Assembly (NCBI GenBank): GCA_965284405.1
Contig: OZ260081.1
Coordinates: 2,209,732 to 2,273,731 of the forward strand
From: Balneola sp.
Lineage (GTDB): Bacteria > Bacteroidota > Rhodothermia > Balneolales > Balneolaceae
Direction of reading: 5' to 3'
DNA: 64,000 nucleotides
The position numbers and the translations under genes were made by a program. Positions 14,733 to 54,403 of this stretch are shown here, piece after piece. Below the pieces are notes generated by a model. That model was not told where the DNA came from. It saw only the letters and a program-made list of their open reading frames with translations, and ran no database searches. Each line of letters begins with the position of its first letter. Positions within the stretch are counted from its first letter, which is position 1.

Positions 14733-14733
14733 C

Positions 14734-15627
14734 ATGAGTGCAGAAATCATTGATGGTAAAAAAGTAGCAGGACTGGTCAGAGATCGTGTGAGAGAAGATG
14801 TTTCTGACTGGAAAGCAAAAGGTAACAGAGCTCCTTTTCTGCAAGTAGTGTTGGTTGGTGATGATCCTGCGTCAAGAGTGTATACCGGTGCTAAAACAAA
14901 AGCCTGTGAAGATGTAGGTATTGAAACCAAAACAGAGATATTACAAGATACCATCTCGGCTAAGGAATTAAAGGCTTTAATACGAGAGTACAATACTGAC
15001 GACTCTATCGATGGGATTTTAGTTCAGCTTCCCTTACCGTCTCATTTAAGTTCTCATGATGTGATCGAAACTATAGATCACCGAAAAGATGTGGACGGTT
15101 TCCATCCTATGAATGTGGGGAGATTATCTCTGGATCAGCCTTGTTTTAAAAGTTGTACTCCCGCAGGTGTGATGGAATTATTCAAACATTACAGCATTGG
15201 AGTGAAAGCAAAACATGCAGTTGTTGTTGGTGCAAGTAATATAGTCGGCTCGCCAATGGCAACGATGCTTTCCAGAGAGAATTCGTCAGGAAAAGCGACT
15301 ACTACTATTTGTCATAAATACACCAAAGATCTTACTCTGCATACCATTAATGCTGATATTTTGATCGTAGCAGCCGGACAACCACATCTGGTAAAGGCTG
15401 AAATGGTAAAAGAAGGAGCTGTTATTGTGGATGTGGGCATCAACAGAGTAGCTGATGAAACTTCCGAAAAAGGGTACAAGTTAGTTGGGGATGTAGACTT
15501 TGAATCCGTAAAGAAAAAAGCCAGCTGGATCACACCTGTTCCTGGTGGGGTTGGCCCAATGACAGTAGCAATGCTGATGAAAAATACTCTCCTTGCTGCC
15601 AAGAAGAGTATTTATCCGGTTGATTAG
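14734..15627 (+). CDS. folD: Bifunctional methylenetetrahydrofolate dehydrogenase/cyclohydrolase
   Basis: [34 protein letters not shown] motifs. Confidence 0.97.
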   Translation: MSAEIIDGKKVAGLVRDRVREDVSDWKAKGNRAPFLQVVLVGDDPASRVYTGAKTKACEDVGIETKTEILQDTISAKELKALIREYNTDDSIDGILVQLPLPSHLSSHDVIETIDHRKDVDGFHPMNVGRLSLDQPCFKSCTPAGVMELFKHYSIGVKAKHAVVVGASNIVGSPMATMLSRENSSGKATTTICHKYTKDLTLHTINADILIVAAGQPHLVKAEMVKEGAVIVDVGINRVADETSEKGYKLVGDVDFESVKKKASWITPVPGGVGPMTVAMLMKNTLLAAKKSIYPVD

Positions 15628-15629
15628 TC
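15453..15629 (+). repeat. Direct repeat copy 1 (177 bp): folD 3' end plus 2 nt
   Basis: Aligns without gaps to 16614-16790 with 6 mismatches. Confidence 0.95.
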
Positions 15630-16559
15630 AATTCTTTTATAAATGATAGAACTGGAAGAAAGGTTACCACTTGTAAATATTTCATATTTTTGTAAACCTT
15701 CATTAGGTATAAATACTACTTCTCCTCCCCAACTGCCTTCGGATGGACAAATTAAACTGTCAACTTTAAAGCCACATCCAGAGTATAATCTTTTTAGCTC
15801 CGAATCTGACCAATTATAGGGTGGAACATCTAAATTCGGAAGGTATAAAAACATACGTTTAAAGAAAGACTGATCTGTAGATTTTAAAATGCCATTTTCT
15901 AGGCTTGTAGTAAATTTTTCAGTAGTTATTGTGTTTGGGAAAGTTTCAGTTACTAAAGTATCATTTCCATTCGCTACTCTTTTATAGTAGTAATGTAAAA
16001 TTTTCTCTTTGGTATACTCAAAACTATATCCATTTTTAGATTCTCTTTCAGTTTTTAACTCTTTGTCAAATTTTAAAGTTATAGTGCTTTCTGAATAAAT
16101 TTCCTCCAAACCATGAGCTGGAGCTAAACTATAATTAAAAATTAAACTAAATTTCCATATTGCACCCTCTTCTATAAGAATTAAAGAGTTGTCAATATTG
16201 TCCATAATGATTGGTTCAATAGCTAAACTGTCAACTTCTCCATCAAACGTTATTTTCTTTATATCTGAGTAAATAACTATGTTGTTTTCAAGAGGGAGTT
16301 TGCTTTGAATTTCGATTGTATCATTTATACTTACTAGATCATCAAATTCGAATTCGTATTTACCGTAACCATATGTTAGGGTTTTGTATTCACTGGTTCC
16401 TATTTTTAAAAATACTTCAGCACTATCTACACCATAATTGGGATAAATCCCTCCATCACCAACGACTATTCCAGAAATAATGTACTTACTAGTACTTTTA
16501 GAATTATTAACCGAACACCCTAGAATAGGTAATAAAAAGAGAAATACAATTTTTTTCAT
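15624..16559 (-). CDS. Hypothetical lipoprotein (cargo between the folD repeats)
   Basis: MKK + hydrophobic stretch + lipobox ILGC. Very AT-rich, no recognised domain. Confidence 0.7.
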   Translation of the reverse strand: MKKIVFLFLLPILGCSVNNSKSTSKYIISGIVVGDGGIYPNYGVDSAEVFLKIGTSEYKTLTYGYGKYEFEFDDLVSINDTIEIQSKLPLENNIVIYSDIKKITFDGEVDSLAIEPIIMDNIDNSLILIEEGAIWKFSLIFNYSLAPAHGLEEIYSESTITLKFDKELKTERESKNGYSFEYTKEKILHYYYKRVANGNDTLVTETFPNTITTEKFTTSLENGILKSTDQSFFKRMFLYLPNLDVPPYNWSDSELKRLYSGCGFKVDSLICPSEGSWGGEVVFIPNEGLQKYEIFTSGNLSSSSIIYKRID

Positions 16560-16613
16560 TGTATAACTTATTATTTAATGATCAGTTAATCAATTTATAA
16601 GAGTGGTTAATAT

Positions 16614-16790
16614 TGATGAAACTTCTGAAAAAGGGTACAAGTTAGTTGGGGATGTAGACTTTGAATCCGTAAAGAAAAAAGCCAGCTGGATCACACCTGT
16701 TCCTGGTGGGGTTGGTCCAATGACAGTAGGTATGCTGATGAAAAATACTCTCCTTGCTGCTAAGAAGAGTATTTATCCTGTTGATTAGTC
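16614..16790 (+). pseudogene. folD: Displaced/duplicated folD 3' fragment (direct repeat copy 2)
   Basis: Encodes [16 protein letters not shown]...SIYPVD*, identical to the FolD C-terminus except one Ala->Gly. No upstream folD sequence. Confidence 0.93.
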
Positions 16791-17201
16791 TAAAGTTCCT
16801 ATTTGAAGTTCCTTTGCTGCTTTTATAAGTGTTTTATCGAAAGTAAATATTTTAAGATTATTTTCAGAAGCAGCTGCTAGATGTAAAGCATCTAAAGTTC
16901 GAAGAGGGGTTGAGGTGGAAGAAAGCAAAATCTCAGCGTTTGAAAATACTAAGCTATCTAAATCCAAAACCTTGAAAATACCAATGCTTATATGATCTTT
17001 AAACAAAGCATATATTTTCTTTACTGAGGAATTAGATAGTTCATTCATTCTGGCTCTCTTTTTTAAGGAAGAAAGCATTTCTATTATGGTGAGTCTGCTT
17101 ATAAAGACATCAGGACTTTTATTGATCAGCTGATCTACATGGTTAGAATTTGTTTCATCAATGTAAAAAGCGAAAAGACAACTTGTATCTATATACATCA
17201 A
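16785..17201 (-). CDS. vapC: Type II TA toxin, VapC/PIN domain
   Basis: PIN acidic residues in [19 protein letters not shown] and TFD. 138 aa, overlaps the antitoxin stop. Confidence 0.9.
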
Positions 17202-17440
17202 TACTTGTCTTCCTTTCTCATGTCAATTACAAACTCTGACATAGGTTTTCCCTTTACTTTAAATTGCTTTCTGAATTCCGTCATATTGGGAAGTTTATTT
17301 TTCCTGGGTTCGTTATAGTTCACCAGCTTGGCAATTGGTTTGTTGTGTTTAGTGATTATGATTTCTTCACCATTTTCAGCTGCCGCCAAATATTTTGCTA
17401 ACTCTTCTCTAACTTGATTTACAGGGACTTTTTTCATCAC
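17198..17440 (-). CDS. Type II TA antitoxin, Phd/YefM family
   Basis: VNQVREELAKYLAAAENGEEIIITKHNKPIAKLV is a classic Phd N-terminal fold. Lies upstream of vapC. Confidence 0.9.
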   Translation of the reverse strand: MMKKVPVNQVREELAKYLAAAENGEEIIITKHNKPIAKLVNYNEPRKNKLPNMTEFRKQFKVKGKPMSEFVIDMRKEDKY

Positions 17441-17446
17441 AATTTA

Positions 17447-17470
17447 TTTATGTACATAAATAATGTACAT
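17447..17470. promoter_or_regulatory. Putative antitoxin operator: two TGTACA palindromes
   Basis: Perfect 14-bp palindrome TTTATGTACATAAA (17447-17460) and ATGTACAT (17463-17470) immediately 5' of the phd/yefM start. TGTACA is the YefM operator core. Confidence 0.7.
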
Positions 17471-17490
17471 AAATCTCATTGATATTCAAA

Positions 17491-18030
17491 TCAGTTCTCA
17501 CTCGATTCAGCAACTGAAATATTTTTGGGATACATCTTTATTATCAGTTGTTTTTGCGAGCTATTGTTTACAAGCGATTTGAATTCAATTCCAAATTCTG
17601 AAATAGAAGCCTCGTTCCTAAGCTGTTTATAGGTTCCCATCACTTCATCAAGCATATCGATATAAACCTTATATGGTGTTTCTCGCTGAGTTTTTAAAGA
17701 TATAATGGCTTTTTGAGGAGAGTCTGATAGTTCAGGATCTTTTCCTCTGTTATTTATGAACTCCCTGAGGATTGGTTTTACTTCTTCGATCAATACAGGT
17801 TTATCATCCATCCTGATCAACCCATCAGCATTGACAAGAATATTCATGAGATTTCTTTCGTGTATTTGAGGTCTGTCGTCTTGAATGGGGGGAGGCAGTA
17901 CTAAAGATATCCCGGTATCTACATTGATGGTTGTAGTAACCAGAAAAAAGATGAGCAGTAAAAAAGCAATATCAGCCATAGAAGAGCCATTTATAGAAGC
18001 TTTTTCACGGATTGGTTTGTTATTGAACAT
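17491..18030 (-). CDS. exbD: Biopolymer transport protein ExbD/TolR family
   Basis: MADIAFLLLIFFLVTT transmembrane motif with conserved Asp. Confidence 0.88.
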   Translation of the reverse strand: MFNNKPIREKASINGSSMADIAFLLLIFFLVTTTINVDTGISLVLPPPIQDDRPQIHERNLMNILVNADGLIRMDDKPVLIEEVKPILREFINNRGKDPELSDSPQKAIISLKTQRETPYKVYIDMLDEVMGTYKQLRNEASISEFGIEFKSLVNNSSQKQLIIKMYPKNISVAESSEN

Positions 18031-18092
18031 AGTAAACTCCTTAATTTATAAAGTTATACTATATATAAGCTCATTATTAACATGGTATTCAG

Positions 18093-18149
18093 TAGCATTT
18101 AAATGCTATTAGAATAATTTTAAAAAAGAGGGTGACACTATGCTGTCAC
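18093..18149. promoter_or_regulatory. Two inverted repeats in the divergent exbD/hypothetical promoter region
   Basis: Perfect 16-bp palindrome TAGCATTTAAATGCTA (18093-18108) and GTGACA-N6-TGTCAC (18132-18149). Confidence 0.45.
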
Positions 18150-18196
18150 TATGTATGATTAAGTTTGGGTAAACAATAAAACAAAACCCAATTATC

Positions 18197-18544
18197 ATGA
18201 CGCTTCATGCACTTACAACTCCGGCAATCTCTAAAAAATCAGAAACTAAACTTTTTGTTGCTCCACTTTTAAATCGTATCAAAAAAGAAAGCAAACAAGA
18301 GTTTGTAGAAATGCAGCAGACCTTTGATTTAATGGGTTGGGGAGAATTACCTGATGAATTGAAGATCGAGATCTATGATGACGTTCGCTTCATGGTTCAG
18401 GAATTAAAAGGCTATTATTCAAGCTGTGACCAGTTTGTTCAGCAAAGAAGAAACACAGTTCACTTTTGGGTAAGTAGCTTTCAGGATGGAATTTGCTCTC
18501 TGGAAGCCGCCATTAAAGCGTTGAAAGTGAAATCTCTTGCATGA
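18197..18544 (+). CDS. Hypothetical protein
   Basis: 115-aa ORF filling the gap with an A-rich leader. No recognised domain. Confidence 0.7.
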   Translation: MTLHALTTPAISKKSETKLFVAPLLNRIKKESKQEFVEMQQTFDLMGWGELPDELKIEIYDDVRFMVQELKGYYSSCDQFVQQRRNTVHFWVSSFQDGICSLEAAIKALKVKSLA

Positions 18545-18552
18545 AGTTTTAA

Positions 18553-18597
18553 ACCGCCGACAATTCAGTGAGTCCTGTTTCCGGATTTGTTGGCGGT
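18553..18597. terminator. Inverted repeat between convergent genes (possible bidirectional terminator)
   Basis: ACCGCCGACAA (18553-18563) pairs with TTGTTGGCGGT (18587-18597). The 23-nt loop includes the stop of the minus-strand gene. Confidence 0.4.
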
Positions 18598-19326
18598 ATT
18601 TTCATTAGAATATACATCTTCGTCTTCTATAGATATCTTCGCATTCCCGGAAGAGCTTATCTTTTTTGAGATAGTTCGGATCATATTCTTAAGCCGTCGT
18701 TTTTCTCTGGAGTAATAGTATTTCATGTACATTAGGCCGCCTGAAAAAGCTACCAAACCACCCAATGGTGCAAACATTACAGCAGTGGATTTAGGAAGTC
18801 CTATTCCTTTTAAAGTAACTAACATAAACACAGAGCCCAAAAATGCAGGGATAAATAGAAGAGGGATCTTCATTGCAGACCAATTATGGACATACTGAAT
18901 TTTAGTTTTTCCATCTTTAGGAGTTAATGAGATATGCTTGTAGCCAAATTCGCCTCTTCTTTGCTCCCATTCAAACGACTTTCCGGTTTTTGCTGACTTA
19001 CCGATTCCTCCGGTCACTTTTCTGATTTCCTGAACAACTTCTTCCCATTGCTCTGAAGACATTTCCTTATCAACATAGGTTACCTCTTGTAATTTAGAGG
19101 TCACCTTACTCCACTTAAATTCCTGATCGAAATCAGGTTTATCATGGATATGTATGGCTTCTAAAAGAGATGCTCTATCAATGCCGACTTCATTGGCAAG
19201 TTCCAGAATTTCCTGCTCTGAGAGTCCATCTTTATCACCGTAAAGATCTTTTTGCGTCTGAATTTCAGAAGCTCTTTTGAGTATTTTACTGATCTCTTTT
19301 TTTGTATAAATATGATCGTTGCCCAT
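18565..19326 (-). CDS. Hypothetical membrane protein (two C-terminal TM helices)
   Basis: N-terminal Y..KEI..IL.RA...LSEQEILELANEVGID helical motif. Two hydrophobic segments near the C-terminus. Confidence 0.75.
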   Translation of the reverse strand: MGNDHIYTKKEISKILKRASEIQTQKDLYGDKDGLSEQEILELANEVGIDRASLLEAIHIHDKPDFDQEFKWSKVTSKLQEVTYVDKEMSSEQWEEVVQEIRKVTGGIGKSAKTGKSFEWEQRRGEFGYKHISLTPKDGKTKIQYVHNWSAMKIPLLFIPAFLGSVFMLVTLKGIGLPKSTAVMFAPLGGLVAFSGGLMYMKYYYSREKRRLKNMIRTISKKISSSGNAKISIEDEDVYSNENTANKSGNRTH

Positions 19327-19406
19327 AAAGTTGTATTAAATTCTATCGAATCTACCGAAAGCTTAAAAAATAGTTTAAACTACAAGCACTTCCATACAGA
19401 TATCCT

Positions 19407-19414
19407 TATCTTTG
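19407..19414 (+). promoter_or_regulatory. Bacteroidota-type -7 promoter element for guaB
   Basis: TATCTTTG matches TAnnTTTG, about 37 nt before ATG 19452. Confidence 0.5.
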
Positions 19415-19451
19415 AAAAACTGCAAGCCAAATTTTTTGTTTCATGTATAAA

Positions 19452-20927
19452 ATGAACGATTCTTCTCCTTTTGAACGCATCACCCGACAAGGGCTTACTT
19501 ATGATGACGTCTTATTAGTACCCAATTATTCAAAAATATTACCAAGAGATGTGGATTTAAGTGTTCAGCTTACGCCAACTCTTAAATTGAACATTCCCAT
19601 TGTTAGTGCAGCCATGGATACAGTTTCTGAATACCGATTAGCAATTGCTCTTGCTCGGGAAGGTGGAATTGCGATGCTTCACAAAAACATGACCATTGAA
19701 GAGCAAGCTGAACAAGTTCGTTTGGTAAAAAGAAGCGAAAGTGGAATGATTGTCGATCCGGTTACTCTGGATGAAAACTCTACGGTAAAGGATGCACGCT
19801 CTTTAATGCGTATGCACAAAATTGGTGGGATACCCATTGTAGATGATAAAGGGATTTTAATCGGTATCGTTACAAATCGTGATCTTCGTTTTGAGTCTGA
19901 TATGACGAAAAAGCTGGGAGAGATCATGACTAAAGAAGATCTTTACACTGCAAAAGAAGGAACTACTCTTAAACAAGCAGAGAAGATCCTTCAACACTTT
20001 AAAGTGGAAAAATTGCCAATCGTAGATTCGAAGAACAAATTGGTTGGATTGATCACTTTCAAGGATATTGAAAAGAAAATGAATTTTCCGAATGCTTGTA
20101 AAGATAATTTGGGCAGACTGAGAGTTGGAGCAGCCGTTGGTGTTACAGCAGATACAATGGAAAGGGTAGAGGCTTTAGTGAATGCCGGAGTGGATGTAAT
20201 TACAGTAGACACAGCACACGGACATTCTGATGGGGTACTTCAAACCGTTTCAAGAATAAAAGCTGAATATCCACATTTAAATGTTATTGGTGGTAACATC
20301 GCCACCAGAGCAGCTGCAGAAGCATTAGTTCAAGCAGGTGCAGATGTTGTAAAAGTTGGTGTTGGTCCAGGGTCTATTTGTACCACCAGAGTGGTTACAG
20401 GAGTTGGAGTTCCACAACTTAGCGCAGTAATGGAAGTGGCAGAATTTTGTAGAGAACAAGGAGTGGGGTTAATTGCTGATGGCGGAATCAAACAAACCGG
20501 AGATATCCCAAAAGCGATAGCCGGGGGAGCTGATGTTGTAATGATGGGTTCTATGTTTGCCGGCGTGGATGAAAGTCCGGGAGAGACTATTATATATGAA
20601 TCCCGTAAGTATAAATCATACCGTGGTATGGGAAGTATCGGAGCAATGAAGAAAGGCTCCAAAGACAGATATTTTCAGGACGTGGAAGATGATATCAATA
20701 AACTAGTTCCTGAAGGGATTGAAGGCCGCGTTCCGTTTAAAGGCTATCTAGGTGAAGTAGTTCACCAAATGACAGGTGGTTTACGAGCTGCAATGGGGTA
20801 TTGCGGTGCAGAAAATATTGAAGGAATGAAAACGGCAGAATTTGTTCAAATTTCAGCGGCTTCATATAAAGAAAGTCATCCTCATTCAGTTCAAATAACA
20901 AAAGAAGCACCGAATTACTCGGTGTAA
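19452..20927 (+). CDS. guaB: Inosine-5'-monophosphate dehydrogenase
   Basis: [10 protein letters not shown], tandem CBS domains, catalytic [14 protein letters not shown]. Confidence 0.98.
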
Positions 20928-20930
20928 TTT

Positions 20931-22232
20931 TTGAGCTTGATGAAAAATGTACTCTTTATTGTCTACTACTTTCCGCCGATGGGAGGTAGTGGAGTTCAGA
21001 GGCCATTAAAATTCGCCAAGTACTTAAAAGAGTTCGGATGGAATCCGATTATTCTGTGCCCTGAGCCTGGTGTTTACCAATTATTTGACCATTCCTTAGA
21101 GCAAGAGCTTGAAAGCTTAGACTTGGAAATTCATAGAGTCAAAGCAAATACACCCTTCCACAAATTCGGTGGTGTTAAGAAACAAACCGGCTTGGTTACC
21201 GGGGTGATTTCTAAAGTCTTAAGGCTTATTTCAAGAAAGATCTATTTCCCCGATAACAAAAAAGCTTGGATCGAACCGGCAGTCCAAAAGGGGAAAGAAT
21301 TAATAGATGATAAAAAGATTGATCTGATCTTTAGTACTGCCCCGCCTTTCAGTAATCATATTATTGCTCAACAATTAAATGAGTTGACAGATATTCCTTA
21401 TGTTTTAGATTATCGGGATCTTTTTACGGGAAATCATTTTGAAGAAAATGAATCTGAATCCAGAAAATTGAAGAAGAAAGCGGCAGAAAGTGAATGGCTG
21501 AGACATTCTTCAGGGATAGTTGCGCTGGATCGATTTGCCGGAGACCGTATACTAGAAGTATTGACCTCCAAAACTCTGAATATGGAGATCGTATCCCACG
21601 GATTTGATCAGGAGGATTTTGATTCCCATAGAAATACTTCACTAGAGTATAAAAAAGGAAAACTCAATTGGTTATACAGCGGGCTTTTTTATGAGGCAAA
21701 CCAACCTGATATATTTTTAAATGGACTGAAAGAACTTTTCACTAAAAAGCCTGAACTAAAAGAGAAGACACATCTTCATTTTCAAGGAGGATTGGATTCC
21801 AGGATCAAAAAGCTAATCAGCAATCTGGAATTTGAAGATATCGTATCAAACTATGGATATCTTTCTCATGATATTTCAGCTGCTAATTTATTAAAAGCAG
21901 ATATTTTGTGGATGGTTTCAAATTTTTCTGAAAATCTGAAACAGATCAAATCCGGAAAACTCTTTGAATATATAGGAACAAAAAAGCCAATTTTAGGTTT
22001 GGTTCATCCCGGTGAAGCTTCAAAGTTACTCGATGATTATAAAGCTGGTTTCCATGCAGCTCCGGATAACATTTATGACGTAACTAATACTTTAGAAGAA
22101 GTGTATGAGTTGTGGGCGAAGGCTAAAATCCCTGAAGCTTCTAAGAAGTTTGCCGAGATGTATGAAAGAAAAAGTTTAACTAATAAATTGTCTTTATTTT
22201 TTGATAAAGTAGTGGAGAATGCGCAAGTTTAA
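20931..22232 (+). CDS. Glycosyltransferase family 4 (GT-B)
   Basis: VLFIVYYFPPMGGSGVQR N-terminus, STAPP, SGKLFEYIG C-terminal motif. Confidence 0.85.
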   Translation: MSLMKNVLFIVYYFPPMGGSGVQRPLKFAKYLKEFGWNPIILCPEPGVYQLFDHSLEQELESLDLEIHRVKANTPFHKFGGVKKQTGLVTGVISKVLRLISRKIYFPDNKKAWIEPAVQKGKELIDDKKIDLIFSTAPPFSNHIIAQQLNELTDIPYVLDYRDLFTGNHFEENESESRKLKKKAAESEWLRHSSGIVALDRFAGDRILEVLTSKTLNMEIVSHGFDQEDFDSHRNTSLEYKKGKLNWLYSGLFYEANQPDIFLNGLKELFTKKPELKEKTHLHFQGGLDSRIKKLISNLEFEDIVSNYGYLSHDISAANLLKADILWMVSNFSENLKQIKSGKLFEYIGTKKPILGLVHPGEASKLLDDYKAGFHAAPDNIYDVTNTLEEVYELWAKAKIPEASKKFAEMYERKSLTNKLSLFFDKVVENAQV

Positions 22233-22235
22233 AAT

Positions 22236-23096
22236 ATGAGAGCATTTATAAAGAGACTTTTTAAAGATCGTCATAAATCCGTTGAAATTATTTTACTTGA
22301 CGACAGTAAACCCGGTCAGGACGATTCTTATAAAATTAAGCCTAATAACCTGTTTATGAGCTTCACGGTGTTATCCGTGATCTTTTCTGTATTAGTTGCT
22401 ATGATATTTATGCTTACTCCACTAGGTGGTTTGTTATATAATACTGATGAAATAGAAATAAGAAGAGAGATTCAAGGTATTTCTGAAAGATTAATATCAC
22501 TTCAGGATTCTTTGGATGTTAGGGATCAGCAGCTCAGAGAGATAAAAGAAGTTATAAGATTAAATAAAGATACTACATTGACCTTGGATGAGAGATTGAG
22601 CTCCATTTCTTCAATTGAAAACTCTAATAATTCATCCTCCTCCATATCTTCATTTTCAAATTTAAGTGTTTCAGATATGTTTGAAAGTGGAAGCTTGGTT
22701 TTAGCAAATGTAATAGAAAATGCTCCTGATTTTCCAACTCAGGCTCCGGCTAAAGGAACTCGTACGAGAGGTTATGAACCACTTGAGGGTCATTTCGGTT
22801 TAGATATTGCTACCAAGGAAAATGATATTTTTATGAATATTGCAGACGGTACGGTAATATCCAGTAGCTGGACAATAGATTTCGGTTATGTGATCTCAGT
22901 TCAACATAAAGACGGACTGGTAAGTACATATAAGCACTGTTCAAAATTATATAAAACAAAAGGAGAGAAAGTTTTCAAGGGAGATGTACTTGGTCTTATA
23001 GGGAATACCGGAATTTCAAGTTCAGGACCACATCTTCATTTTGAGATTTGGAAAAATGGGGTTTCACAAAATCCATTAGCCTATTTAATTTTTTAA
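22236..23096 (+). CDS. M23 family metallopeptidase
   Basis: TM helix and coiled coil, then HFGLD, YKHC and HLHFE zinc motifs. Confidence 0.9.
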   Translation: MRAFIKRLFKDRHKSVEIILLDDSKPGQDDSYKIKPNNLFMSFTVLSVIFSVLVAMIFMLTPLGGLLYNTDEIEIRREIQGISERLISLQDSLDVRDQQLREIKEVIRLNKDTTLTLDERLSSISSIENSNNSSSSISSFSNLSVSDMFESGSLVLANVIENAPDFPTQAPAKGTRTRGYEPLEGHFGLDIATKENDIFMNIADGTVISSSWTIDFGYVISVQHKDGLVSTYKHCSKLYKTKGEKVFKGDVLGLIGNTGISSSGPHLHFEIWKNGVSQNPLAYLIF

Positions 23097-23542
23097 TGAG
23101 TATGTTTAACAAAAATAAAAAGAGTAAAACCGTGAGTAATTCTACAAATCAGTCACCTTCAGTAAATATTATTAATGAGGGTACCAAAATAAAAGGAAAC
23201 CTACAGGCTAACTCGGATATCCGTGTAAGTGGTACTATTGTAGGTGAGGCCATTTCTAAAGGCAAGATCATACTTACTAATAATGGTTTGGTGAAGGGCA
23301 ATGTTTCGTCATCTGATGCAGATATAGCTGGTAAAGTTGAAGGAGATGTGAAAGTAAATAGCCGTCTTATCCTGAGGAAGGAAGCAATTATCGACGGAAA
23401 TATTTTTACAAAAACATTGGTAGTAGAGGAAGGTGCTCAAATAAACGGAACTTGCAAGATGGGTTCTGATGTAAAAAATCTATCTCAAACTAATGATTCT
23501 GAATATGCTGAAGAGACTCAGCTAAAAGGGGTTAAGGCGTAA
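23096..23542 (+). CDS. Bactofilin (polymer-forming cytoskeletal protein)
   Basis: IINEGTKIKGNL...IRVSGTIVG...VKGNV...I.G.V.G beta-helix repeats. TAATG overlap with the M23 stop. Confidence 0.9.
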   Translation: MSMFNKNKKSKTVSNSTNQSPSVNIINEGTKIKGNLQANSDIRVSGTIVGEAISKGKIILTNNGLVKGNVSSSDADIAGKVEGDVKVNSRLILRKEAIIDGNIFTKTLVVEEGAQINGTCKMGSDVKNLSQTNDSEYAEETQLKGVKA

Positions 23543-23545
23543 CGA

Positions 23546-23761
23546 ATGCAGTTGCCTGAAGAATACAGGGAGCACCTGAATCTTGGCGCTGAAATTGCAT
23601 TCACTCTTTTAATACCAATAGGAGTAGGATACGTTCTGGATAAATACCTGGAAACTTCTCCTTATGGTATGTTAATCGGAGCCGGATTGGGGATAATTTT
23701 ATTCTTTAATTTGGTTTTTAAACTCGCAAAAAATGAGGGAGGTAATAATCAGAATAAGTGA
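23546..23761 (+). CDS. AtpZ/AtpI family protein
   Basis: Two TM helices, GYVLDKYLETSPYGMLIG motif, first gene of the atp operon. Confidence 0.85.
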   Translation: MQLPEEYREHLNLGAEIAFTLLIPIGVGYVLDKYLETSPYGMLIGAGLGIILFFNLVFKLAKNEGGNNQNK

Positions 23762-24123: not shown

Positions 24124-24130
24124 TTTAGAA

Positions 24131-25183: not shown

Positions 25184-25210
25184 TTAATTAATAAAACCCC
25201 TAACTAATAA

Positions 25211-25438
<228 letters not shown>

Positions 25439-25447
25439 TAGGAAGCA

Positions 25448-25960: not shown

Positions 25961-25969
25961 GCTTAGCTG

Positions 25970-43820: not shown

Positions 43821-44034
43821 GGTCAGAACTGTGTTAGTTAGTTTAGTGGAACTGTAGATGATGATTGCTTTACTCGTAATGCTTTAATCACTTTTTCGTA
43901 AATAAAGTTTCGGGATAAAAGCTTTTATAATATAACTTAGCAATTTAAGTGATAGTATGAATAAACATATTTTTTCTAAAGTTAATTCTTATACTTAAAT
44001 GTGATTGTCAACGATTTGTAATTAAGAAAGATCT

Positions 44035-45606: not shown

Positions 45607-45704
45607 TATCATCTTGCTCTATGAACTTGTAATACAATTTCGATTCAATATTGAGCGATCTTTTCGGTAAATTCAATGCTTAAAGAAATTCCGGCTTTTA
45701 CTAA

Positions 45705-48212: not shown

Positions 48213-48230
48213 TTTTGAGAATACTTTGAT

Positions 48231-48572
48231 ATGAAGATCGTCAAAATTAATACTGATGATATTCTTGATTGGAACTCATTTCATGAAGTCTTCTCGAGTA
48301 AGTTTGGATTCCCAAGTTTTTACGGTAGAAATATGGATGCGTGGATAGACTGTATGGAATCATTGGATTCTCCTGAAGATGGAATGACAACAATTCATGT
48401 TAAGCCCGGAGAAACTTTGATACTGGAATTGAATAATGTTACATCATTTGCCAAAAGAAATAAAGAGATTTATGAAGCTATTGTCGAGTGTTCTGCCTTT
48501 GTTAATCACAGAAGAATCGAAGTTGGAGAGCCTCCGGTTCTTACTTTATCTTTTCATAAAAAAAATGTCTAA
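48231..48572 (+). CDS. Barstar family protein
   Basis: I.DWNSFH..F...FGFPSFYGRNMDAWIDCM motif. Confidence 0.85.
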   Translation: MKIVKINTDDILDWNSFHEVFSSKFGFPSFYGRNMDAWIDCMESLDSPEDGMTTIHVKPGETLILELNNVTSFAKRNKEIYEAIVECSAFVNHRRIEVGEPPVLTLSFHKKNV

Positions 48573-48607
48573 AAATCTACTTTGAGTTTTAAATTAGTTT
48601 CAGCAAA

Positions 48608-49372
48608 ATGATCGATACTCATTCACATATCTATTTGAAAGACTTTGATGAGGATAGAGAGGCAGTTTATAAAAGAGCGGTTGAAGCTGGAATTAAAACT
48701 ATTCTGATGCCTGCCATAGATTTCGATTCTTTGAAACAAATGGATTCGCTGAGTTTTGACGGAATCGAATTTCATAAAATGGCCGGACTTCATCCCTGTG
48801 ATGTTGAAGAGCTGGAGGATGGTTTCGAAAAGAAGTTATTAGAGCTTTGCTCCGATGAAGATATAATCGGCGTAGGCGAAACAGGTCTGGATTACTATTG
48901 GAGTAAGGATCATATCACAGAGCAGAAGTTAAGCCTGCATGCTCATTGCAGAGTTGCCAAGAAAGTTAATAAGCCGATCATACTTCACAACCGGGAAAGC
49001 ACAGAAGACCTTTTGCATATCATTGAACAGGAGCAGGATGGTTCTCTAAAAGGAATCTGGCATTGTTTTAACGGAACGGTAGAAGAAGGTAAGCGCGCAA
49101 TCGATATGGGATTTCATCTGGGAATAGGAGGTGTGGTTACCTTTAAAAATGGAGGCGTAGATAAAACAGTAGCAGAACTTCCTTTAGAGAAAATGGTTCT
49201 TGAAACTGATGCTCCCTATTTATCGCCGACTCCGAAAAGGGGAAAACGAAATGAACCTGCTTTTATGAAATACACAGCTGAGAAATTAGCTGATATTTTT
49301 GAGCTCAGCGTTAAAGAAGTTGTTGCTCAGACTTCCCAAACTGCTAAAGCATTATTCAAGCTGGATCAATGA
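48608..49372 (+). CDS. tatD: TatD family hydrolase/DNase
   Basis: IDTHSH, GETGLDY, ILHNR, WHCF, ETDAPY. Confidence 0.95.
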   Translation: MIDTHSHIYLKDFDEDREAVYKRAVEAGIKTILMPAIDFDSLKQMDSLSFDGIEFHKMAGLHPCDVEELEDGFEKKLLELCSDEDIIGVGETGLDYYWSKDHITEQKLSLHAHCRVAKKVNKPIILHNRESTEDLLHIIEQEQDGSLKGIWHCFNGTVEEGKRAIDMGFHLGIGGVVTFKNGGVDKTVAELPLEKMVLETDAPYLSPTPKRGKRNEPAFMKYTAEKLADIFELSVKEVVAQTSQTAKALFKLDQ

Positions 49373-49707
49373 AACCATCCACTAAAGACTTTTATCAGCG
49401 GGTTTATGAGGTTGTAGCAAAAATACCGGAGGGCAGAGTTACTTCTTACGGTGTGATTGCAGGATATCTCGGAGTTGAGTCCGGAGCTAGAATGGTTGGA
49501 TATGCACTTAATAATTATGATCCTGAACAACTTGGCTATCACATTCCTGCACACAGAGTTTTAAACCGTCTCGGACAACTTACCGGCAGAGCTTTTTTTG
49601 AAGATGACTCAATGCGTGAGAGATTGGAACAAGAAGGGGTGGAATTCACTTCAGAATATACCGTTAACTTCAATAAACATTTTTGGAATCCGTTTGATGA
49701 GTTATAA
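49369..49707 (+). CDS. Alkyltransferase-like (ATL, MGMT-family) protein
   Basis: IPEGRVTSYG...ARMVGYAL. PAHRV replaces catalytic PCHRV. Confidence 0.9.
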   Translation: MKPSTKDFYQRVYEVVAKIPEGRVTSYGVIAGYLGVESGARMVGYALNNYDPEQLGYHIPAHRVLNRLGQLTGRAFFEDDSMRERLEQEGVEFTSEYTVNFNKHFWNPFDEL

Positions 49708-49741
49708 CTTGTTGTCATATGATCATGAAATCATTAGAAAA

Positions 49742-50350
49742 ATGAAATCGCTGAAATTTATATCGCTGTTTATACTTTTAGTTGTTGCCTCAATGGAGGT
49801 AAATGCACAAAGATCATTGAGTATTGGAGATGAAGCTCCAATGCTTGATCACAGTGTTGAAGATATAAACGGACGATCAATTACTCTTTCACAAACAGCA
49901 CAACAGAACGGAATATTAGTTGTGTTCTCATGCAATACCTGTCCGATGGTTTCAAGATGGGAAGACAGGATAAAGGCAGCTGCAAATACTGCACGACTCA
50001 ATAATATTGGAATGCTTGTACTCAATCCTAATGAAAGGATCAGAGAGCGTGGTGAATCATTGAGTGACATGAAACGCAGAGCAACCAAACAAACCTATAA
50101 TTTTTTGTATGCATCAGATAAAGACCATGTAATTGCGGATGCATTCGGCGCTACCAGAACTCCCGAGGTATTTTTATTTGATGGATCTTTGAAGTTGGTT
50201 TATAAAGGAAGCATAGATGATAATGCAAACAATGCTTCAGCTGTTAAAAATCAATATCTGGAAGATGCTATTCAGGCTTTAGCCTCAGGTACAGAAATTG
50301 AAGTTAAAAGAAGTGCTCCAAAAGGTTGTCCGATAAAGCGAAACGAGTAA
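49742..50350 (+). CDS. Thioredoxin-fold (AhpC/TSA/redoxin) secreted protein
   Basis: Signal peptide from ATG 49742, IGDEAP, FSCNTCP (CxxC), GATRTPEVF, YKGSIDD, GC.IK. Confidence 0.88.
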   Translation: MKSLKFISLFILLVVASMEVNAQRSLSIGDEAPMLDHSVEDINGRSITLSQTAQQNGILVVFSCNTCPMVSRWEDRIKAAANTARLNNIGMLVLNPNERIRERGESLSDMKRRATKQTYNFLYASDKDHVIADAFGATRTPEVFLFDGSLKLVYKGSIDDNANNASAVKNQYLEDAIQALASGTEIEVKRSAPKGCPIKRNE

Positions 50351-50367
50351 TTCTTATAAAAATCTCT

Positions 50368-50375
50368 TATTTTTG
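50368..50375 (+). promoter_or_regulatory. Possible -7 promoter element upstream of queD
   Basis: TATTTTTG matches TAnnTTTG, about 62 nt before the queD ATG. Confidence 0.3.
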
Positions 50376-50377
50376 AA

Positions 50378-50405
50378 GGGCTCATCTGATGATGAGCTTT
50401 TTTTA
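50378..50405 (+). terminator. Rho-independent terminator-like hairpin
   Basis: GGGCTCATC-TGAT-GATGAGCTT followed by a T run. Confidence 0.7.
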
Positions 50406-50437
50406 TGCTAATATTTTAAAACAGTTGCCGGAATTAC

Positions 50438-50827
50438 ATGCCAACGTGGACACTACATACCGAATTTAAATTTGATGCCGCACACTTCATTGAAGGATAT
50501 GACGGGAAATGCGGAAGAATGCACGGGCATTCCTATAAAGTTAAGATCTCTGCGAAATCCAATAAACTGAATCCATCGGCTTATTTGAACACAGATGATA
50601 TGGTCTGCGATTTTAAAGAACTTAAATGGGCAGCAAAAGATGCGGATAAAGGTGGGCTTGATCATGGTTTCCTTAACGATCTGATCGAAGCGAATACAAC
50701 AGCAGAACGTATTGCAGAGTTTATCCATACAGAAACCACGAAAAGAATTCCGGCAGGAATTGATCTTAAAGTGATCGTGTGGGAAACAGACACCTGCTGG
50801 GTAGAATACACGGATAAAGACGAGTAG
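50438..50827 (+). CDS. queD: 6-carboxy-5,6,7,8-tetrahydropterin synthase
   Basis: FDAAH, CGRMHGHSY, DHGFLND, TAERIA. Confidence 0.92.
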   Translation: MPTWTLHTEFKFDAAHFIEGYDGKCGRMHGHSYKVKISAKSNKLNPSAYLNTDDMVCDFKELKWAAKDADKGGLDHGFLNDLIEANTTAERIAEFIHTETTKRIPAGIDLKVIVWETDTCWVEYTDKDE

Positions 50828-50844
50828 CTCGCATTTTTCTTTCC

Positions 50845-50877
50845 CATCCATCTGACGGATAGCCCGTCTGATGGATG
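50845..50877. repeat. Palindrome family X (CATCTGACGG-N5-CCGTCTGATG), copy 1
   Basis: CATCCATCTGACGG-ATAGC-CCGTCTGATGGATG. Other copies at 51517-51541, 52261-52285 and 62926-62950. Confidence 0.85.
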
Positions 50878-50880
50878 ATA

Positions 50881-50975
50881 ACGACATTCACGAGCGTATG
50901 CGAAATGATCTCCGTAAAAAGCTAAAGCATATCGAATTCAAGAGATTGCGTCGTCACATCCGTTCCTCGCAAATG
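50881..50975. repeat. Degenerate GTCATTGCGAG.../GAGATTGC...CCTCGCAATGAC-type REP doublet
   Basis: ACATTCACGAGCGTATGCGAAATGATCTC ... GAGATTGCGTCGTC...CCTCGCAAATG. Confidence 0.5.
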
Positions 50976-50992
50976 GAATTCCATACAAACAC

Positions 50993-51006
50993 AGGGCTGA
51001 AGCCCT
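50993..51006. repeat. GGGCTGAAGCCC-type REP hairpin
   Basis: AGGGCTGAAGCCCT; related copy at 63455-63473. Confidence 0.6.
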
Positions 51007-51051
51007 TGCTAGCATATGTACGAGCCCATTTCTAAACATTTTTAATCTAGG

Positions 51052-51479
51052 GTCATCCTGAACTTGTTTCAGGATCTTTGCGGGGTTTATTGCTAGTTGT
51101 TCTATCCGAAACACCAATCAATGTTTAATAACCTCCATCACCCCGCTTTCAGCGAAATGATGGATAGCTACTTCTCCGTCTGTCGGGCTTTGCACGGCTG
51201 ACGGATTTTGATTGTAGTGGAAGGAACGGACCTCCCCGGTTCCGAAATACATTCGTGGGTTCTGAGTAGTTCGCCCCTCCTTAGATAAGGAGGGGAATTC
51301 CCGAGTTGATTCTAAATATTATCAACGACTCCTCCTCCTGTTGCAGGAGGAGACAGAGGAGGTCTTTAACTTTAGAAATCACAATCAAAGTCATTCCTGC
51401 GAAGGCAGGAATCTGGATTGTTATCAAAGAGTGTGATCTTCAAAAAGATCCAGATCTCGGGCATACGCCGCGAGATGAC
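51052..51479 (+). repeat. Composite palindromic element, long form, copy A1
   Basis: Starts GTCATC, ends GATGAC. Ordered hairpins; near-identical to 51788-52222. Confidence 0.9.
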
Positions 51480-51576
51480 CCGTTTTATTATTTTTTTAGC
51501 AGAATTTCCAAAAATTCATCTGATATGTAGCCCGTCTGAAGAATCTTCGTAACAATAGGTCTGAGAAATTACTCAC

Positions 51577-51772
51577 TTACTTTTGTCTTGATACAAAAGT
51601 AACAAAAGATCAAGGCGAAGTATTTAAACCGGGCTCGTTTAATTGTCGCTGAATAATTCCAAAGGTCTTCGTTCTTTTAGAGAAAATTTCTACACTTTTC
51701 ACCTGAAGGAATTATTCCCACTTCGCGGACGCTTACAATTCTTGCTCACTAACCGGTTTTAATACTAAGGCC
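51577..51772. repeat. Structured element B: short perfect hairpin plus long imperfect hairpin
   Basis: TTACTTTTGT-CTTGAT-ACAAAAGTAA. GTATTTAAACCGG(51620)/CCGGTTTTAATAC(51753). GAATAATTCC(51651)/GGAATTATTC(51708). Confidence 0.65.
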
Positions 51773-51787
51773 GATAAAAGTATAACC

Positions 51788-52222
51788 GTCATCCAGTCCG
51801 CCAGCTGGCGGATCAGGATCTTTGCGGGGTTTATTGCTAGTTGTTATATCCGAAACACCAATCAATGTTTAATAACCTCCATCACCCCGCTTTCAGCGAA
51901 ATGATGGATAGCTACTTCTCCGTCTGTCGGGCTTTGCACGGCTGACGGATTTTGATTGTAGTGGAAGGAACGGACCTCCCCGGTTCCGAAATACATTCGT
52001 GGGTTCTGAGTAGTTCGCCCCTCCTTAACCAAGGAGGGGAATTCCCGAGTTGATTATAAATTTTATCAACGAGTCCTCCTCCTGTTGCAGGAGGAGACAG
52101 AGGAGGTCTTTAACTTTAGAAATCACAATCAAAGTCATTCCTGCGAAGGCAGGAATCCGGATCGTAATCAAAGAATGAGTTCTTCAAAAAGATCCGGATC
52201 TCGGGCATACGCCGCGAGATGG
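51788..52222 (+). repeat. Composite palindromic element, long form, copy A2
   Basis: Same module order as A1. First hairpin variant is GTCATCCAGTCCGCCAGCTGGCGGATCAGGATCT. Confidence 0.9.
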
Positions 52223-52260
52223 CCTGTTTTATTATTTTCCCTGCAGAACTTCCCTAGATT

Positions 52261-52285
52261 CATCTGACGGATTACCCGTCTGATG
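52261..52285. repeat. Palindrome family X copy
   Basis: CATCTGACGGATTACCCGTCTGATG, the exact reverse complement of 62926-62950. Confidence 0.9.
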
Positions 52286-52400
52286 TATCTTCGTAGAGAC
52301 AACCTCAACAAGTCCCATCCTCAGGTTTCTTCTGGTTAGTATTAGCCGTATTTTGTGAGATCAATAAAATCCCGTTTTTATAAACAGTTCCTCCAATACT

Positions 52401-53045
52401 ATGAACAAGCAACCGGTTGCTTTAATGAACGATGAAAAAGAGATACTCGACGTCGAATATCCGATCGTGGAGCATTTTTACACGATACAGGGCGAAGGTG
52501 CGCATTCGGGAAGAGCTTCCTATTTCATCAGAACGGCGGGTTGTGACGTAAACTGCTGGTGGTGCGATGTAAAGGAAAGCTGGGAAGAAGAAGGTCACCC
52601 GGTGATGAAAGTTTCTGAGCTGGTGGAAGTCGTAAAAGAAAGTGGCGCTCCGTTTGTAGTGATCACCGGTGGGGAACCATTGATGCACGATCTATTCCCG
52701 CTTACAAAAGCATTGCATTCGCTTGGTGTTCAGATCCATATTGAAACCAGTGGCTCATCTCCGTTGACCGGAGAATTAGACTGGATCACACTTTCACCCA
52801 AGAGATTCAAAAAACCAACCGAAGAGATCTTTGAATTTGTGGATGAACTGAAAGTGGTCGTTCTTACCAACAAAGATCTGGTTTGGGCAGAAGAAAACGC
52901 AGCTAAATGTCCCGAAGGAACGACTTTATTACTACAACCGGAATGGGACACTCCGAAATCCATTCCGCTAATTGTGGAATATGTGAAAGAACATCCTGAG
53001 TGGGGAATCAGCCTGCAGACGCACAAGTTTTTGAAGGTTCCGTAA
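52401..53045 (+). CDS. queE: 7-carboxy-7-deazaguanine synthase (radical SAM)
   Basis: EHFYTIQGEG, CxxxCxxC (CDVNCWWC), ITGGEP, ETSG, TLSPK, LQTHK. Confidence 0.95.
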   Translation: MNKQPVALMNDEKEILDVEYPIVEHFYTIQGEGAHSGRASYFIRTAGCDVNCWWCDVKESWEEEGHPVMKVSELVEVVKESGAPFVVITGGEPLMHDLFPLTKALHSLGVQIHIETSGSSPLTGELDWITLSPKRFKKPTEEIFEFVDELKVVVLTNKDLVWAEENAAKCPEGTTLLLQPEWDTPKSIPLIVEYVKEHPEWGISLQTHKFLKVP

Positions 53046-53761
53046 TGAGTTTCAAAAAATCATCTGTTTTGATAACAGGAGGGAGCAAGGGAATCGGTCT
53101 TTCCATAGCAAAGATGTTTGCTGAAAAGACTGATCATCCTTTAGTGCTGATTGCACGCAACACTTCCGATCTGGAAAAAGCGAAACAGCAATGTCTGGAT
53201 TGGGGCGCACCAAAAGTAGAAACCATTTCTGCAGACCTGACCTCAGAAAAAGAAATTGCCGCTATTGATTTCAGATTGTTGAAGCCGGGAATTTTAGTAA
53301 ACAATGCCGGCGTATTTTTATTTAAGCAGTTAGCAGATACGACCGCCGAAGAATTTGACCGACAATATCGACTCAATACATTTTCCACTTTCAATATCAC
53401 AAAACAAGTGCTCCCGGTGTTGAAAGAACAGGAGCGAGGCTTGATAGTGAATATTTGCTCACAGGCTTCCAAAAAAGGCTATAGAGACAGCGGCGCGTAC
53501 ACGATGAGCAAGCATGCGCTTTTGGGTTACACGCGCTCTCTGCGGAAAGAATTAGCCAAAAAGACCAACATTGCGGTTTCGGCTGTTAATCTGGGACAAA
53601 CTTACTCCACTTCCTGGGAAGATGTGGATATTGAAACTGACAAGCTGATCGATCCGGAAGATGTGGGAAGAGTGATCGTTTCCCTTTCTGAACTCAGCCC
53701 CAGAAGCGTGGTGGAAGAAATCGATATTATGCCACAGGGCGGAGAAGTAAAGCCGATGTAG
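53045..53761 (+). CDS. SDR family oxidoreductase
   Basis: TGGSKGIG, NNAG, YTMSK (YxxxK). TAATG coupling to queE. Confidence 0.93.
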   Translation: MSFKKSSVLITGGSKGIGLSIAKMFAEKTDHPLVLIARNTSDLEKAKQQCLDWGAPKVETISADLTSEKEIAAIDFRLLKPGILVNNAGVFLFKQLADTTAEEFDRQYRLNTFSTFNITKQVLPVLKEQERGLIVNICSQASKKGYRDSGAYTMSKHALLGYTRSLRKELAKKTNIAVSAVNLGQTYSTSWEDVDIETDKLIDPEDVGRVIVSLSELSPRSVVEEIDIMPQGGEVKPM

Positions 53762-53765
53762 GCTT
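53716..53765 (+). repeat. Direct repeat copy 1 (50 bp): SDR 3' end plus 4 nt
   Basis: Matches 54354-54403 with a single mismatch (CAG/CAA). Confidence 0.95.
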
Positions 53766-53782
53766 ATATTTATCGAATCCGG

Positions 53783-54070
53783 TTACAAAATGCTTGACAA
53801 ATCCTGCTTTCCAATAACTGCCATTATTTCTACTATCTCATTATTAATTTTGAAATAAATACTATCTGAACCACAAACACATCGTCGGTATCCTGATTTG
53901 ATGTAATCAACAGATTCAAAAGAGAATGGTCTTTCAGAAATATTATCAAAGCAATCAAATAGAGCTTTAAAATACAGATCGGCTTGTTGTACACCGAACT
54001 GTTTGATACCGTACTGATGAATTCTTATTAAATCTATTTTAGCTTCATTGCTTAACCGATAATCAGCCAT
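53783..54070 (-). CDS. parE: Type II TA toxin, ParE/RelE family
   Basis: YRLSNEAKIDL..I..YG...FG..QAD.Y, YRR..CGS..IYF, IMAVI pattern. Confidence 0.9.
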   Translation of the reverse strand: MADYRLSNEAKIDLIRIHQYGIKQFGVQQADLYFKALFDCFDNISERPFSFESVDYIKSGYRRCVCGSDSIYFKINNEIVEIMAVIGKQDLSSIL

Positions 54071-54305
54071 TTTTCAGCTGAGATTTTGATTGGTTTAGTA
54101 TCTCTTCTTTAGTGTCGGTGGTAAAACCACTTTTTTCAGCTCTTTCCAGTTTTGCTCTGATCCAATTTATCTCAGCATTCTGATTTCTTGCCTGCCGCAC
54201 TAGATCGTTAACTAATTCACTCTTACTGGAATATTCTTCGTTCTCAACCTGAGATTTCAACCATTCATCATTTGGTCTTGTAAATGTAATGCTCTGACGC
54301 GCCAT
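54063..54305 (-). CDS. parD: Type II TA antitoxin, ParD/CopG RHH family
   Basis: RQSITFT...WL..QV...EYSSKSELVNDLVR. Overlaps the parE start. Confidence 0.88.
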   Translation of the reverse strand: MARQSITFTRPNDEWLKSQVENEEYSSKSELVNDLVRQARNQNAEINWIRAKLERAEKSGFTTDTKEEILNQSKSQLKNG

Positions 54306-54353
54306 GTTTTTGATGCAAAATTACACCAATACTGTATCTGAAGCAAATCTTGT

Positions 54354-54403
54354 AGAAATCGATATTATGCCACAAGGCGGAGAAGTAAAGCCGATGTAGG
54401 CTT
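54354..54403 (+). repeat. Direct repeat copy 2 (displaced SDR 3' end)
   Basis: AGAAATCGATATTATGCCACAAGGCGGAGAAGTAAAGCCGATGTAGGCTT; abuts the crotonase stop codon. Confidence 0.95.

Follow-up and report, generated by a model that had tools for sequence, protein, structure and literature searches.

Gene additions behind conserved genes in Balneola, marked by displaced copies of the host gene ends

In this study we describe two small accessory cassettes, and the repeats that enclose them, in a 64,000-nucleotide (nt) stretch of DNA from a marine Balneola sp. (contig OZ260081.1, positions 2,209,732 to 2,273,731), called here the window. One cassette lies behind folD (site A) and the other behind a gene for a short-chain dehydrogenase (SDR; site B), and at both sites the cassette is followed by a second, displaced copy of the 3' end of the gene behind which it stands. 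Both structures are true strain-variable insertions, and both left their host genes intact. The recurrent and apparently recombinase-free addition of genes after conserved genes, with displacement of the old gene tail, is real in Balneolaceae, and its mechanism is most likely a known one. In the explanation that we favour, with confidence that is about even, each structure is the scar of a single insertion anchored by homology in a conserved core gene, for which no dedicated recombinase is needed.

Results

Two cassettes enclosed by copies of a host gene end

The window is a core-chromosome stretch of a Balneola species (Balneolaceae), the best matches of its folD being Balneola metagenome-assembled genomes (MAGs) at 94-99% identity. 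Site A consists of the following features:

14734..15627, plus strand: folD, the intact host gene (Pfam THF_DHG_CYH and THF_DHG_CYH_C)
15453..15629, plus strand: repeat copy 1, the functional final 175 nt of folD and 2 nt more
15624..16559, minus strand: cargo A, an orphan gene for a predicted lipoprotein of 311 amino acids (aa), with a lipoprotein signal peptide
15630..16790, no strand: the net inserted unit, 984 nt of cargo and the 177-nt copy
16614..16790, plus strand: repeat copy 2, the displaced, non-functional 3' fragment of folD
16785..17440, minus strand: vapC (PIN) and vapB (Phd/YefM), assigned by Pfam, the original convergent neighbours of folD; vapC at 16785-17201, minus strand, and vapB at 17198-17440, minus strand, with exbD (minus strand) next

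Site B has the same layout:

53000..53761, plus strand: the SDR gene, intact host gene (Pfam adh_short)
53716..53765, plus strand: repeat copy 1, the final 46 nt of the SDR gene and 4 nt more
53766..54353, minus strand: cargo B, parE and parD with 48 nt upstream and 17 nt downstream (Pfam ParE_toxin and ParD_antitoxin)
53783-54070, minus strand: parE, toxin
54063-54305, minus strand: parD, antitoxin
54354..54403, plus strand: repeat copy 2, the displaced SDR tail, abutting the ECH stop
54403..55215, minus strand: ECH, a gene for enoyl-CoA hydratase (Pfam ECH_1), the original convergent neighbour of the SDR gene

A sequence-only reading of the window had proposed one geometry for both sites, namely a host gene on the plus strand, a convergent cargo on the minus strand, a copy of the host 3' end and then the original neighbour on the minus strand, and this holds at folD as well as at the SDR gene. 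It had also described each repeat as the terminal coding segment with 2-4 nt past the stop, which is what we found: the direct repeat of site A (15453-15629 and 16614-16790) is 177 nt long, 97% identical and terminates 2 nt beyond the folD stop, and that of site B (53716-53765 and 54354-54403) is 50 nt long, 98% identical and terminates 4 nt beyond the SDR stop. Repeats this long and this identical cannot have arisen within 64 kb by chance. The two have no sequence in common, as had been stated, the best local alignment between them scoring at most 9. Copy 2 stands upstream of the cargo, with 54 nt between it and the start codon at site A and 48 nt at site B. In site A the last codon and the stop, GAC TAA, lie inside the repeat for both the lipoprotein gene (copy 1) and vapC (copy 2). 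The vapBC pair, which the sequence-only reading had noted as toxin-antitoxin genes at site A, is located outside the repeat and the insert, and is an older neighbour.

The lipoprotein gene matched nothing in Pfam or PADLOC, and among 5.8 billion proteins the sole match of its product was itself, in the MAG L094. Its GC content is 29%, with flanks at 38-42%, and its AlphaFold model was unusable, with a predicted local distance difference test score (pLDDT) of 33. The nearest ParE relatives outside this site, at 81% and 77% identity, are found in unrelated contexts without repeats, therefore parDE itself does not create repeats.

Empty sites and independent copies of the structures

Both structures are insertions, because close strains carry the empty sites. 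In L003 and L182-L187 (labels with L denote the loci used for comparison) vapC directly abuts folD in convergent orientation, and in L081, L082, L084, L085 and L087 ECH lies 3 nt from the SDR stop and parDE is absent. When filled and empty alleles were aligned, the insert of site A measured 1161 nt and that of site B 638 nt, in both cases the length of the cargo and one repeat. The proposal that accessory cassettes were added without disruption of the host gene is thereby confirmed. The vapBC pair is also strain-variable, since it is absent in L102, a further strain with an empty folD site, where folD, 99% identical, converges directly on exbD (2926-2929); no long repeat marks the vapBC insertion.

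The window comes probably from a metagenome-like or mixed sample and both strain variants occur in nature, which is the situation in which an assembler could chain two variants in tandem. We regard such an artefact as practically ruled out. The independent MAG L094 (GCA_018223025.1), 98.6% identical over 13.8 kb, has the same structure at site A, and Logan contigs cross both site A junctions at single-copy depth in the two source runs and in X1 and X2, which together belong to three studies. In the X1 and X2 runs the repeat, 176 nt there, forms one unitig at double depth. For site B, the exact ParE protein is listed in 126 collection blocks, and all 23 contigs that were read place parE between the SDR gene and ECH.

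Recurrence behind folD and at a third gene

In all Balneolaceae loci folD keeps its synteny with ntrC and pbp4. The interval behind it is a hotspot: in the 44 Balneolales loci compared, between 3 nt and 8.5 kb separate folD from the next conserved gene, and the gene content differs in almost every genome. Two of these relatives repeat the pattern of site A with other cargos. In L001 a 7.7-kb block follows folD, encoding a lipoprotein, an extracytoplasmic function (ECF) sigma factor, a DUF5666 protein, FecR and a TonB-dependent receptor, all co-directional with folD, and after it comes a displaced folD tail of 121 nt that ends 10 nt before the stop. The working folD of L001 ends in YPE*, and the displaced copy, fused to vapC, keeps YPVD*; the new folD end therefore arrived with the cargo. 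The FolD protein of L001 was changed by 1-2 residues; otherwise the FolD and SDR proteins are unchanged. In L002 a DUF2911 gene, likewise co-directional with folD, is followed by a decayed folD tail of about 85-125 nt.

The boundaries of the folD repeats vary. Their left ends are at -177 (window and L094), -121 (L001) and about -105 to -125 (L002), and their right ends at +2 (window and L094) or -10 (L001 and L002), with AAGAGTATTTATCC(T/G)G common to all the folD events at the right end. Past the called repeat ends homology was not significant, except for about 20 nt in L002.

A third host gene is found in L007, a Gracilimonas MAG, at 11793-14303. Here hyp115 (plus strand) is followed by a convergent gene of the hyp253 family, by about 135 nt of the hyp115 tail, about 80% identical, and by the original hyp253 gene. 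Together with L001 and L002, this locus supports the claim of the sequence-only reading that the route recurs. A displaced old 3' fragment thus stands downstream of the new module at both window sites and in L001, L002 and L007.

The same geometry would be produced by a local tandem duplication that starts inside the host 3' end and takes in the gene tail and its neighbour, with later divergence or replacement of one copy, and the hyp253 family does occur in 2-3 diverged tandem copies, in L007 and L003 as well as in L008 and L103. We consider this explanation very improbable. In the window the cargo and the neighbour are unrelated (lipoprotein against vapC, parDE against ECH), and the empty sites hold just the neighbour gene. 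In L007 the two flanking hyp253-family genes are only 32% identical at the amino acid level, whereas the supposedly co-duplicated and unconstrained tail retains about 80%; therefore a diverged allele together with its anchor was imported, and this was not a recent tandem duplication.

The five cargos are thus the orphan lipoprotein gene, parDE, the ECF sigma/FecR/TonB-receptor operon, the DUF2911 gene and the hyp253 paralogue. Three are convergent with the host gene and two, those of L001 and L002, co-directional, hence an antisense cargo is not the rule that had been supposed. An enrichment for toxin-antitoxin (TA) or defence genes had been suggested too, but there is one TA pair among the five cargos and none of them matches PADLOC. 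Since two of five cargos are co-directional and just one is a TA pair, the convergent orientation and the TA link are incidental.

The scan for repeats covered 0.93 Mb from Balneolales and 1.75 Mb from other bacteria, in loci centred on folD or on the regions described here, and within this material a coding 3' end was repeated at the folD, SDR and hyp115 sites alone. The sole repeat of this type outside Balneolales, in L145, proved to be a plain tandem pair of full-length paralogues and was rejected. Another small strain-variable insertion in the window has no flanking repeat: a barstar gene (113 aa, 48217-48583) stands between the MMPL transporter and tatD genes in the window and in L089, and is absent in L081-L083.

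Divergence of cargos, repeats and flanks between strains

Cargos are far less diverged between strains than their flanks. At site A, the window and L094 differ at 1 of 984 nt in the cargo and at 1 of 177 nt in copy 2, whereas the 5' part of folD, copy 1 and vapCB together have 34 differences in 1546 nt. At site B, there are 0-5 differences per 583-588 nt of cargo between strains and 13-45 per 600 nt of flank; the cassette resides in at least four flank haplotypes, and the filled L083 is nearly isogenic with the empty L081. The repeat copies follow their surroundings at site B, where copy 1 tracks the left-flank haplotype and copy 2, with two polymorphic positions, the right-flank haplotype. 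At site A, copy 2 is 1-2 of 177 positions off the native folD tail of the cargo-less majority (1 of 177 relative to L182-L187), and copy 1 of the window has five single nucleotide polymorphisms (SNPs) relative to copy 2, which match the folD alleles of other strains.

These figures have to be read against the mosaic state of the region. When window positions 11435-23096 were compared with L182, L184, L186 and L094, identity for the same strain pair went from 74-89% to 100% in neighbouring genes, and within 10 kb it ranged from 89 to 100%; vapCB, for example, is the same as in L186 at all 650 nt, and the IMPDH gene is 89% identical. Homologous recombination is therefore frequent in the Balneola population. 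The low divergence of the cargo looks like that of a discrete mobile unit but does not prove one. The sharp boundaries are equally explained because the replacement of flanks by cargo-less alleles stops at the homology border, that is at the cassette junctions, and the cargo keeps a single recent origin because cargo-less strains offer no partner for it. The SNP patterns are not decisive between a single crossover, homology-facilitated illegitimate recombination (HFIR) and a site-specific crossover.

Searches for a recombinase or an element signature

None of the 20 open reading frames (ORFs) in cargos, folD-downstream intervals or neighbouring positions carries an integrase, resolvase or transposase domain of Pfam, and a crude pattern search for the tyrosine-recombinase motif gave no hit in the window or in the Balneolales loci. 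Neither an integrase nor an intact element was present in the five cassettes or in the 44 Balneolales folD loci. One way in which the sequence-only reading could have failed was that each site is the remnant of an integrase-bearing element of relatives; neither the cargos nor these loci contained an integrase or transposase gene, and the SDR site occurs in only two states in at least 13 contigs. Terminal inverted repeats were not significant (best p=0.24 against shuffles), and the cassettes have no end motif or k-mers in common above the level of chance. In Rfam searches of the whole window only one tRNA-Ser was found, with no RNA element at the two sites, and the cargos and gene tails gave nothing relevant in viral contigs or plasmids. 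A transposon, an insertion sequence or a miniature inverted-repeat transposable element was rejected as an explanation in view of the missing transposase and terminal inverted repeat and of the long and variable duplications.

Site-specific recombination deserves a closer look. Under it, integrase-less cassettes, either decayed in the manner of a cis-mobilizable element (CIME) or natively cargo-only, would be moved by a recombinase elsewhere in the genome or by a helper element, and the attachment site would include the 3' end of folD or of the SDR gene. The layout itself speaks for this, as a direct repeat of the target 3' end, with an element that restores the gene, is the classic attL/attR arrangement (PMC5704250). 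Partial-tRNA repeats are likewise present in tycheposon islands. The motif that the folD events have in common at the right end, the three different neighbours joined exactly at the folD stop, and the small divergence of the cargo relative to its flanks agree with it, and so does window copy 1, which is host-type up to the final 12 nt with copy 2 population-type, as would fit a fixed crossover there. Yet the repeat boundaries differ at both ends between events, the folD, SDR and hyp115 repeats have no common core, and no integrase or intact element turned up. The Logan contigs of the carrier runs reported no joint of an excised circle or of a restored empty site. The 588-nt cargo of site B is nearly filled by parDE, with 17 and 48 nt to spare; to leave this as a remnant, two deletions would have had to be very precise. 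Flank replacement that stops at the homology border would give sharp divergence boundaries just as well, and both copies at site B track their local flank haplotypes rather than a constant element allele. On balance, we find a site-specific origin unlikely.

Other variable regions of the window

Next to site B, the interval from ECH to a DUF1801 gene is a hotspot of defence genes. In the window it contains, at 55425-57251, a 608-aa OLD/AriA/GajA-like AAA_15 ATPase-nuclease, and the interval can be followed in L081-L093; other strains have there SIR2, HerA-SIR2, a DUF87 ATPase, an NgoBV-type restriction-modification pair, a D12 methylase or a GIY-YIG protein.

A family of intergenic modules that consist of short GC-rich hairpins occurs at 50846-52290, 58277-58472, 59742-60414 and 63004-63186. 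Examples of the hairpins are GTCATTCCTGCGAAGGCAGGAATC, ATCCTGAAC..GTTTCAGGAT and CCCCTCCTT..AAGGAGGGG, and none has an Rfam match. Two tandem units of 744 nt lie between queD and queE, and a tandem pair of 259 nt follows after 59.9 kb. The queD-queE spacer varies between strains from about 0.7 to 1.6 kb, and the hairpin that stands just after the queD stop is present three times (50846, 51514 and 52258).

Discussion

The analysis shows insertions with empty counterparts, events that recur while their cargos and boundaries vary, little divergence of the cargos, and no recombinase genes in the searches made; the crossover mechanism, the form of the donor DNA and the dependence on RecA are what we infer. 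In the incoming DNA, the cargo would already be linked to a folD or SDR tail. If it was a circular molecule, it would integrate by a single Campbell-type crossover within the tail and so duplicate it. If it was linear and came from a strain in which other genes follow folD, it would pair with the folD of the recipient, as in HFIR; its non-homologous end would be ligated illegitimately to the resident strand before strand exchange reaches the gene end, and the un-exchanged final 50-180 nt would remain as the second copy. By either route the incoming DNA would supply the working 3' end, and the old one would move downstream, a pseudogene fragment that keeps its junction with the original neighbour, so that both flanking genes would stay intact. 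The repeat would stop just after the stop codon, where the synteny of donor and recipient ends, and its other end would be arbitrary (50, 121 or 177 nt), as expected for an illegitimate joint. Such routes would therefore explain a right boundary at the end of synteny, an arbitrary left end, the survival of both host and neighbour, and the lack of a recombinase gene. Afterwards, the direct repeats would permit RecA-mediated loss of the cassette, and recombination with the cargo-less majority would replace the flanks up to the homology border.

Several observations weigh against a homology-anchored insertion. In copy 1 of the window, host-type SNPs persist as close as 12 nt to the cargo, a pattern that a site-specific crossover would also yield. 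Three of about ten distinct folD-downstream configurations have a repeat with its joint in the final 180 nt, which is many if joints are random. The exbD, vapC and lipoprotein genes, unrelated to each other, all end on a TAA that overlaps the TAG of folD, forming TTAG, and this hints at a preferred joining point at the stop codon. The overlaps are located as follows:

15620-15630 and 16781-16791 in the window
2920-2935 in L102
10885-10895 in L003

Moreover, no donor was found among 160 folD loci, 5.8 billion proteins, viral contigs and plasmids, a sampling that may be insufficient, and this material contained neither a genome or contig with a cargo beside folD or the SDR gene but lacking the repeat, nor a free molecule of cargo and gene tail. 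The missing donor, the frequent joints near the gene end and the common TAA leave some probability to a trans-acting recombinase and to a duplication of the target.

Break repair or template switching could produce similar structures from the host sequence itself. Foreign DNA would be captured at a break with long staggered ends, or a fork would return from a foreign template 50-180 nt upstream, and the repeat would correspond to a very long target-site duplication of variable size. The least-altered carriers are consistent with this, as their two copies are identical and match the native cargo-less allele (L094, X1 and X2 at site A; L083 and L086 at site B). Identical copies are, however, also expected if the donor belonged to the same population, in which the folD tail is nearly invariant. 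The cargos look foreign: one is an orphan at 29% GC, and the nearest relatives of parDE, at most 81% identical, stand in unrelated surroundings that have no repeats. The lipoprotein ORF lacks a stop codon of its own and runs on into the target. At either site of the window, convergent genes abut, and collisions there might perhaps stall forks. In L001, on the other hand, the working and the displaced folD tails differ, which a pure duplication of the target cannot make, and we know of no established bacterial mechanism with target duplications of 50-180 nt. We judge this origin improbable.

It is also conceivable, in our opinion with rather low probability, that Balneolaceae possess a specific route, be it a trans-acting chromosomal recombinase or a process of repair or replication at abutting gene ends. 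Such a route would place unrelated small cassettes exactly at stop codons with duplication of 50-180 nt of the tail, and the repeat-flanked cassettes would then move between diverged strains as discrete units.

The homology-anchored insertion that we favour has counterparts in other bacteria. Precedents for Campbell-type integration and HFIR are reportedly also to be found in de Vries and Wackernagel (2002) and in Prudhomme et al. (2002). In E. coli conjugation, when a circular molecule that bore part of a gene end integrated by single crossover, 109-950 bp were duplicated; these single-crossover products were much commoner than those of classical HFIR, which usually deletes recipient DNA instead of duplicating it (PMC3240628). 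The Balneola structures resemble such products in having one homologous anchor and one non-homologous joint, no dedicated recombinase, foreign inserts of about 1 kb and a similar range of duplication sizes, and their direct duplications of arbitrary length (50, about 105, 121 and 177 nt) end at the end of the shared gene. They differ in that the former were laboratory events with engineered donors, whereas those of Balneola are natural, fixed in lineages and recurrent at one core gene.

A second counterpart is the 'C-terminal displacement' in Rhs, contact-dependent inhibition (CDI) and type VI secretion system (T6SS) effector-immunity loci, which is said to have been described by Jackson et al. 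(2009). Kirchberger et al. (2017) treat displacement of this kind, and HFIR has been put forward as its cause in the T6SS clusters of V. cholerae and in Rhs genes, where a module with a conserved upstream part replaces the working 3' end and the old 3' part is displaced together with its downstream partner, with no integrase known; the variable part in those loci is the toxin domain of the host gene and the immunity gene (PMC5361080). In Balneola, by contrast, housekeeping genes act as hosts and their products stay the same or almost the same; it is the downstream content that varies, and what is displaced amounts to a short pseudogene tail. In view of the end duplication shown for a single crossover (PMC3240628) and of the displacement proposed to occur by HFIR (PMC5361080), the suggestion that the window reveals an overlooked mode of gene acquisition was overstated.

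Integrative elements come close to the Balneola cassettes in layout. Phage 21 and e14 integrate in icd with about 165 nt of homology. CIMEs are integrase-less derivatives left by decayed integrative and conjugative elements (ICEs) or integrative and mobilizable elements (IMEs), and in this group direct repeats of gene 3' ends flank the cargo, the target is restored and accretion pushes older material downstream (PMC5704250). The window repeats of 177 nt and 50 nt, ending 2-4 nt past the stop, have this layout. Integrative elements nevertheless use a site-specific integrase with a fixed core, while the Balneola cassettes are without a found integrase, have variable boundaries and measure 0.6-1.2 kb (7.7 kb in L001).

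Hotspots flanked by core genes are the last comparison. The 'minimal mobile elements' of Neisseria and the integration hotspots of Oliveira, Touchon and Rocha (2017) are reportedly of this kind. Similarly, the interval from folD to exbD or hyp115 is varied in almost every Balneolaceae genome and holds no mobile-element genes, and the ECH-to-DUF1801 interval likewise swaps defence genes. The difference is that a double-crossover exchange leaves no duplication, whereas the displaced tails of Balneola record one-sided events.

Conclusions

Most strain-specific genes of free-living marine bacteria lie in small 'islets' without mobile-element genes, and the route of their arrival is rarely visible. 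The displaced gene tails described here are a readable scar, which marks several additions beside folD, the SDR gene and hyp115 as one-sided, with an anchor in a conserved gene and none at the far end, and not as double-crossover exchange. Each insertion is reversible by recombination between its repeats. The scar can be searched for as a coding 3' end that recurs in direct orientation within a few kb, and could serve to count such events across genomes. If the insertions are site-directed, they would represent a new kind of cassette system; if they are not, Balneola would show cleanly, in nature, a mechanism for which laboratory crosses and polymorphic-toxin loci have been the main sources.

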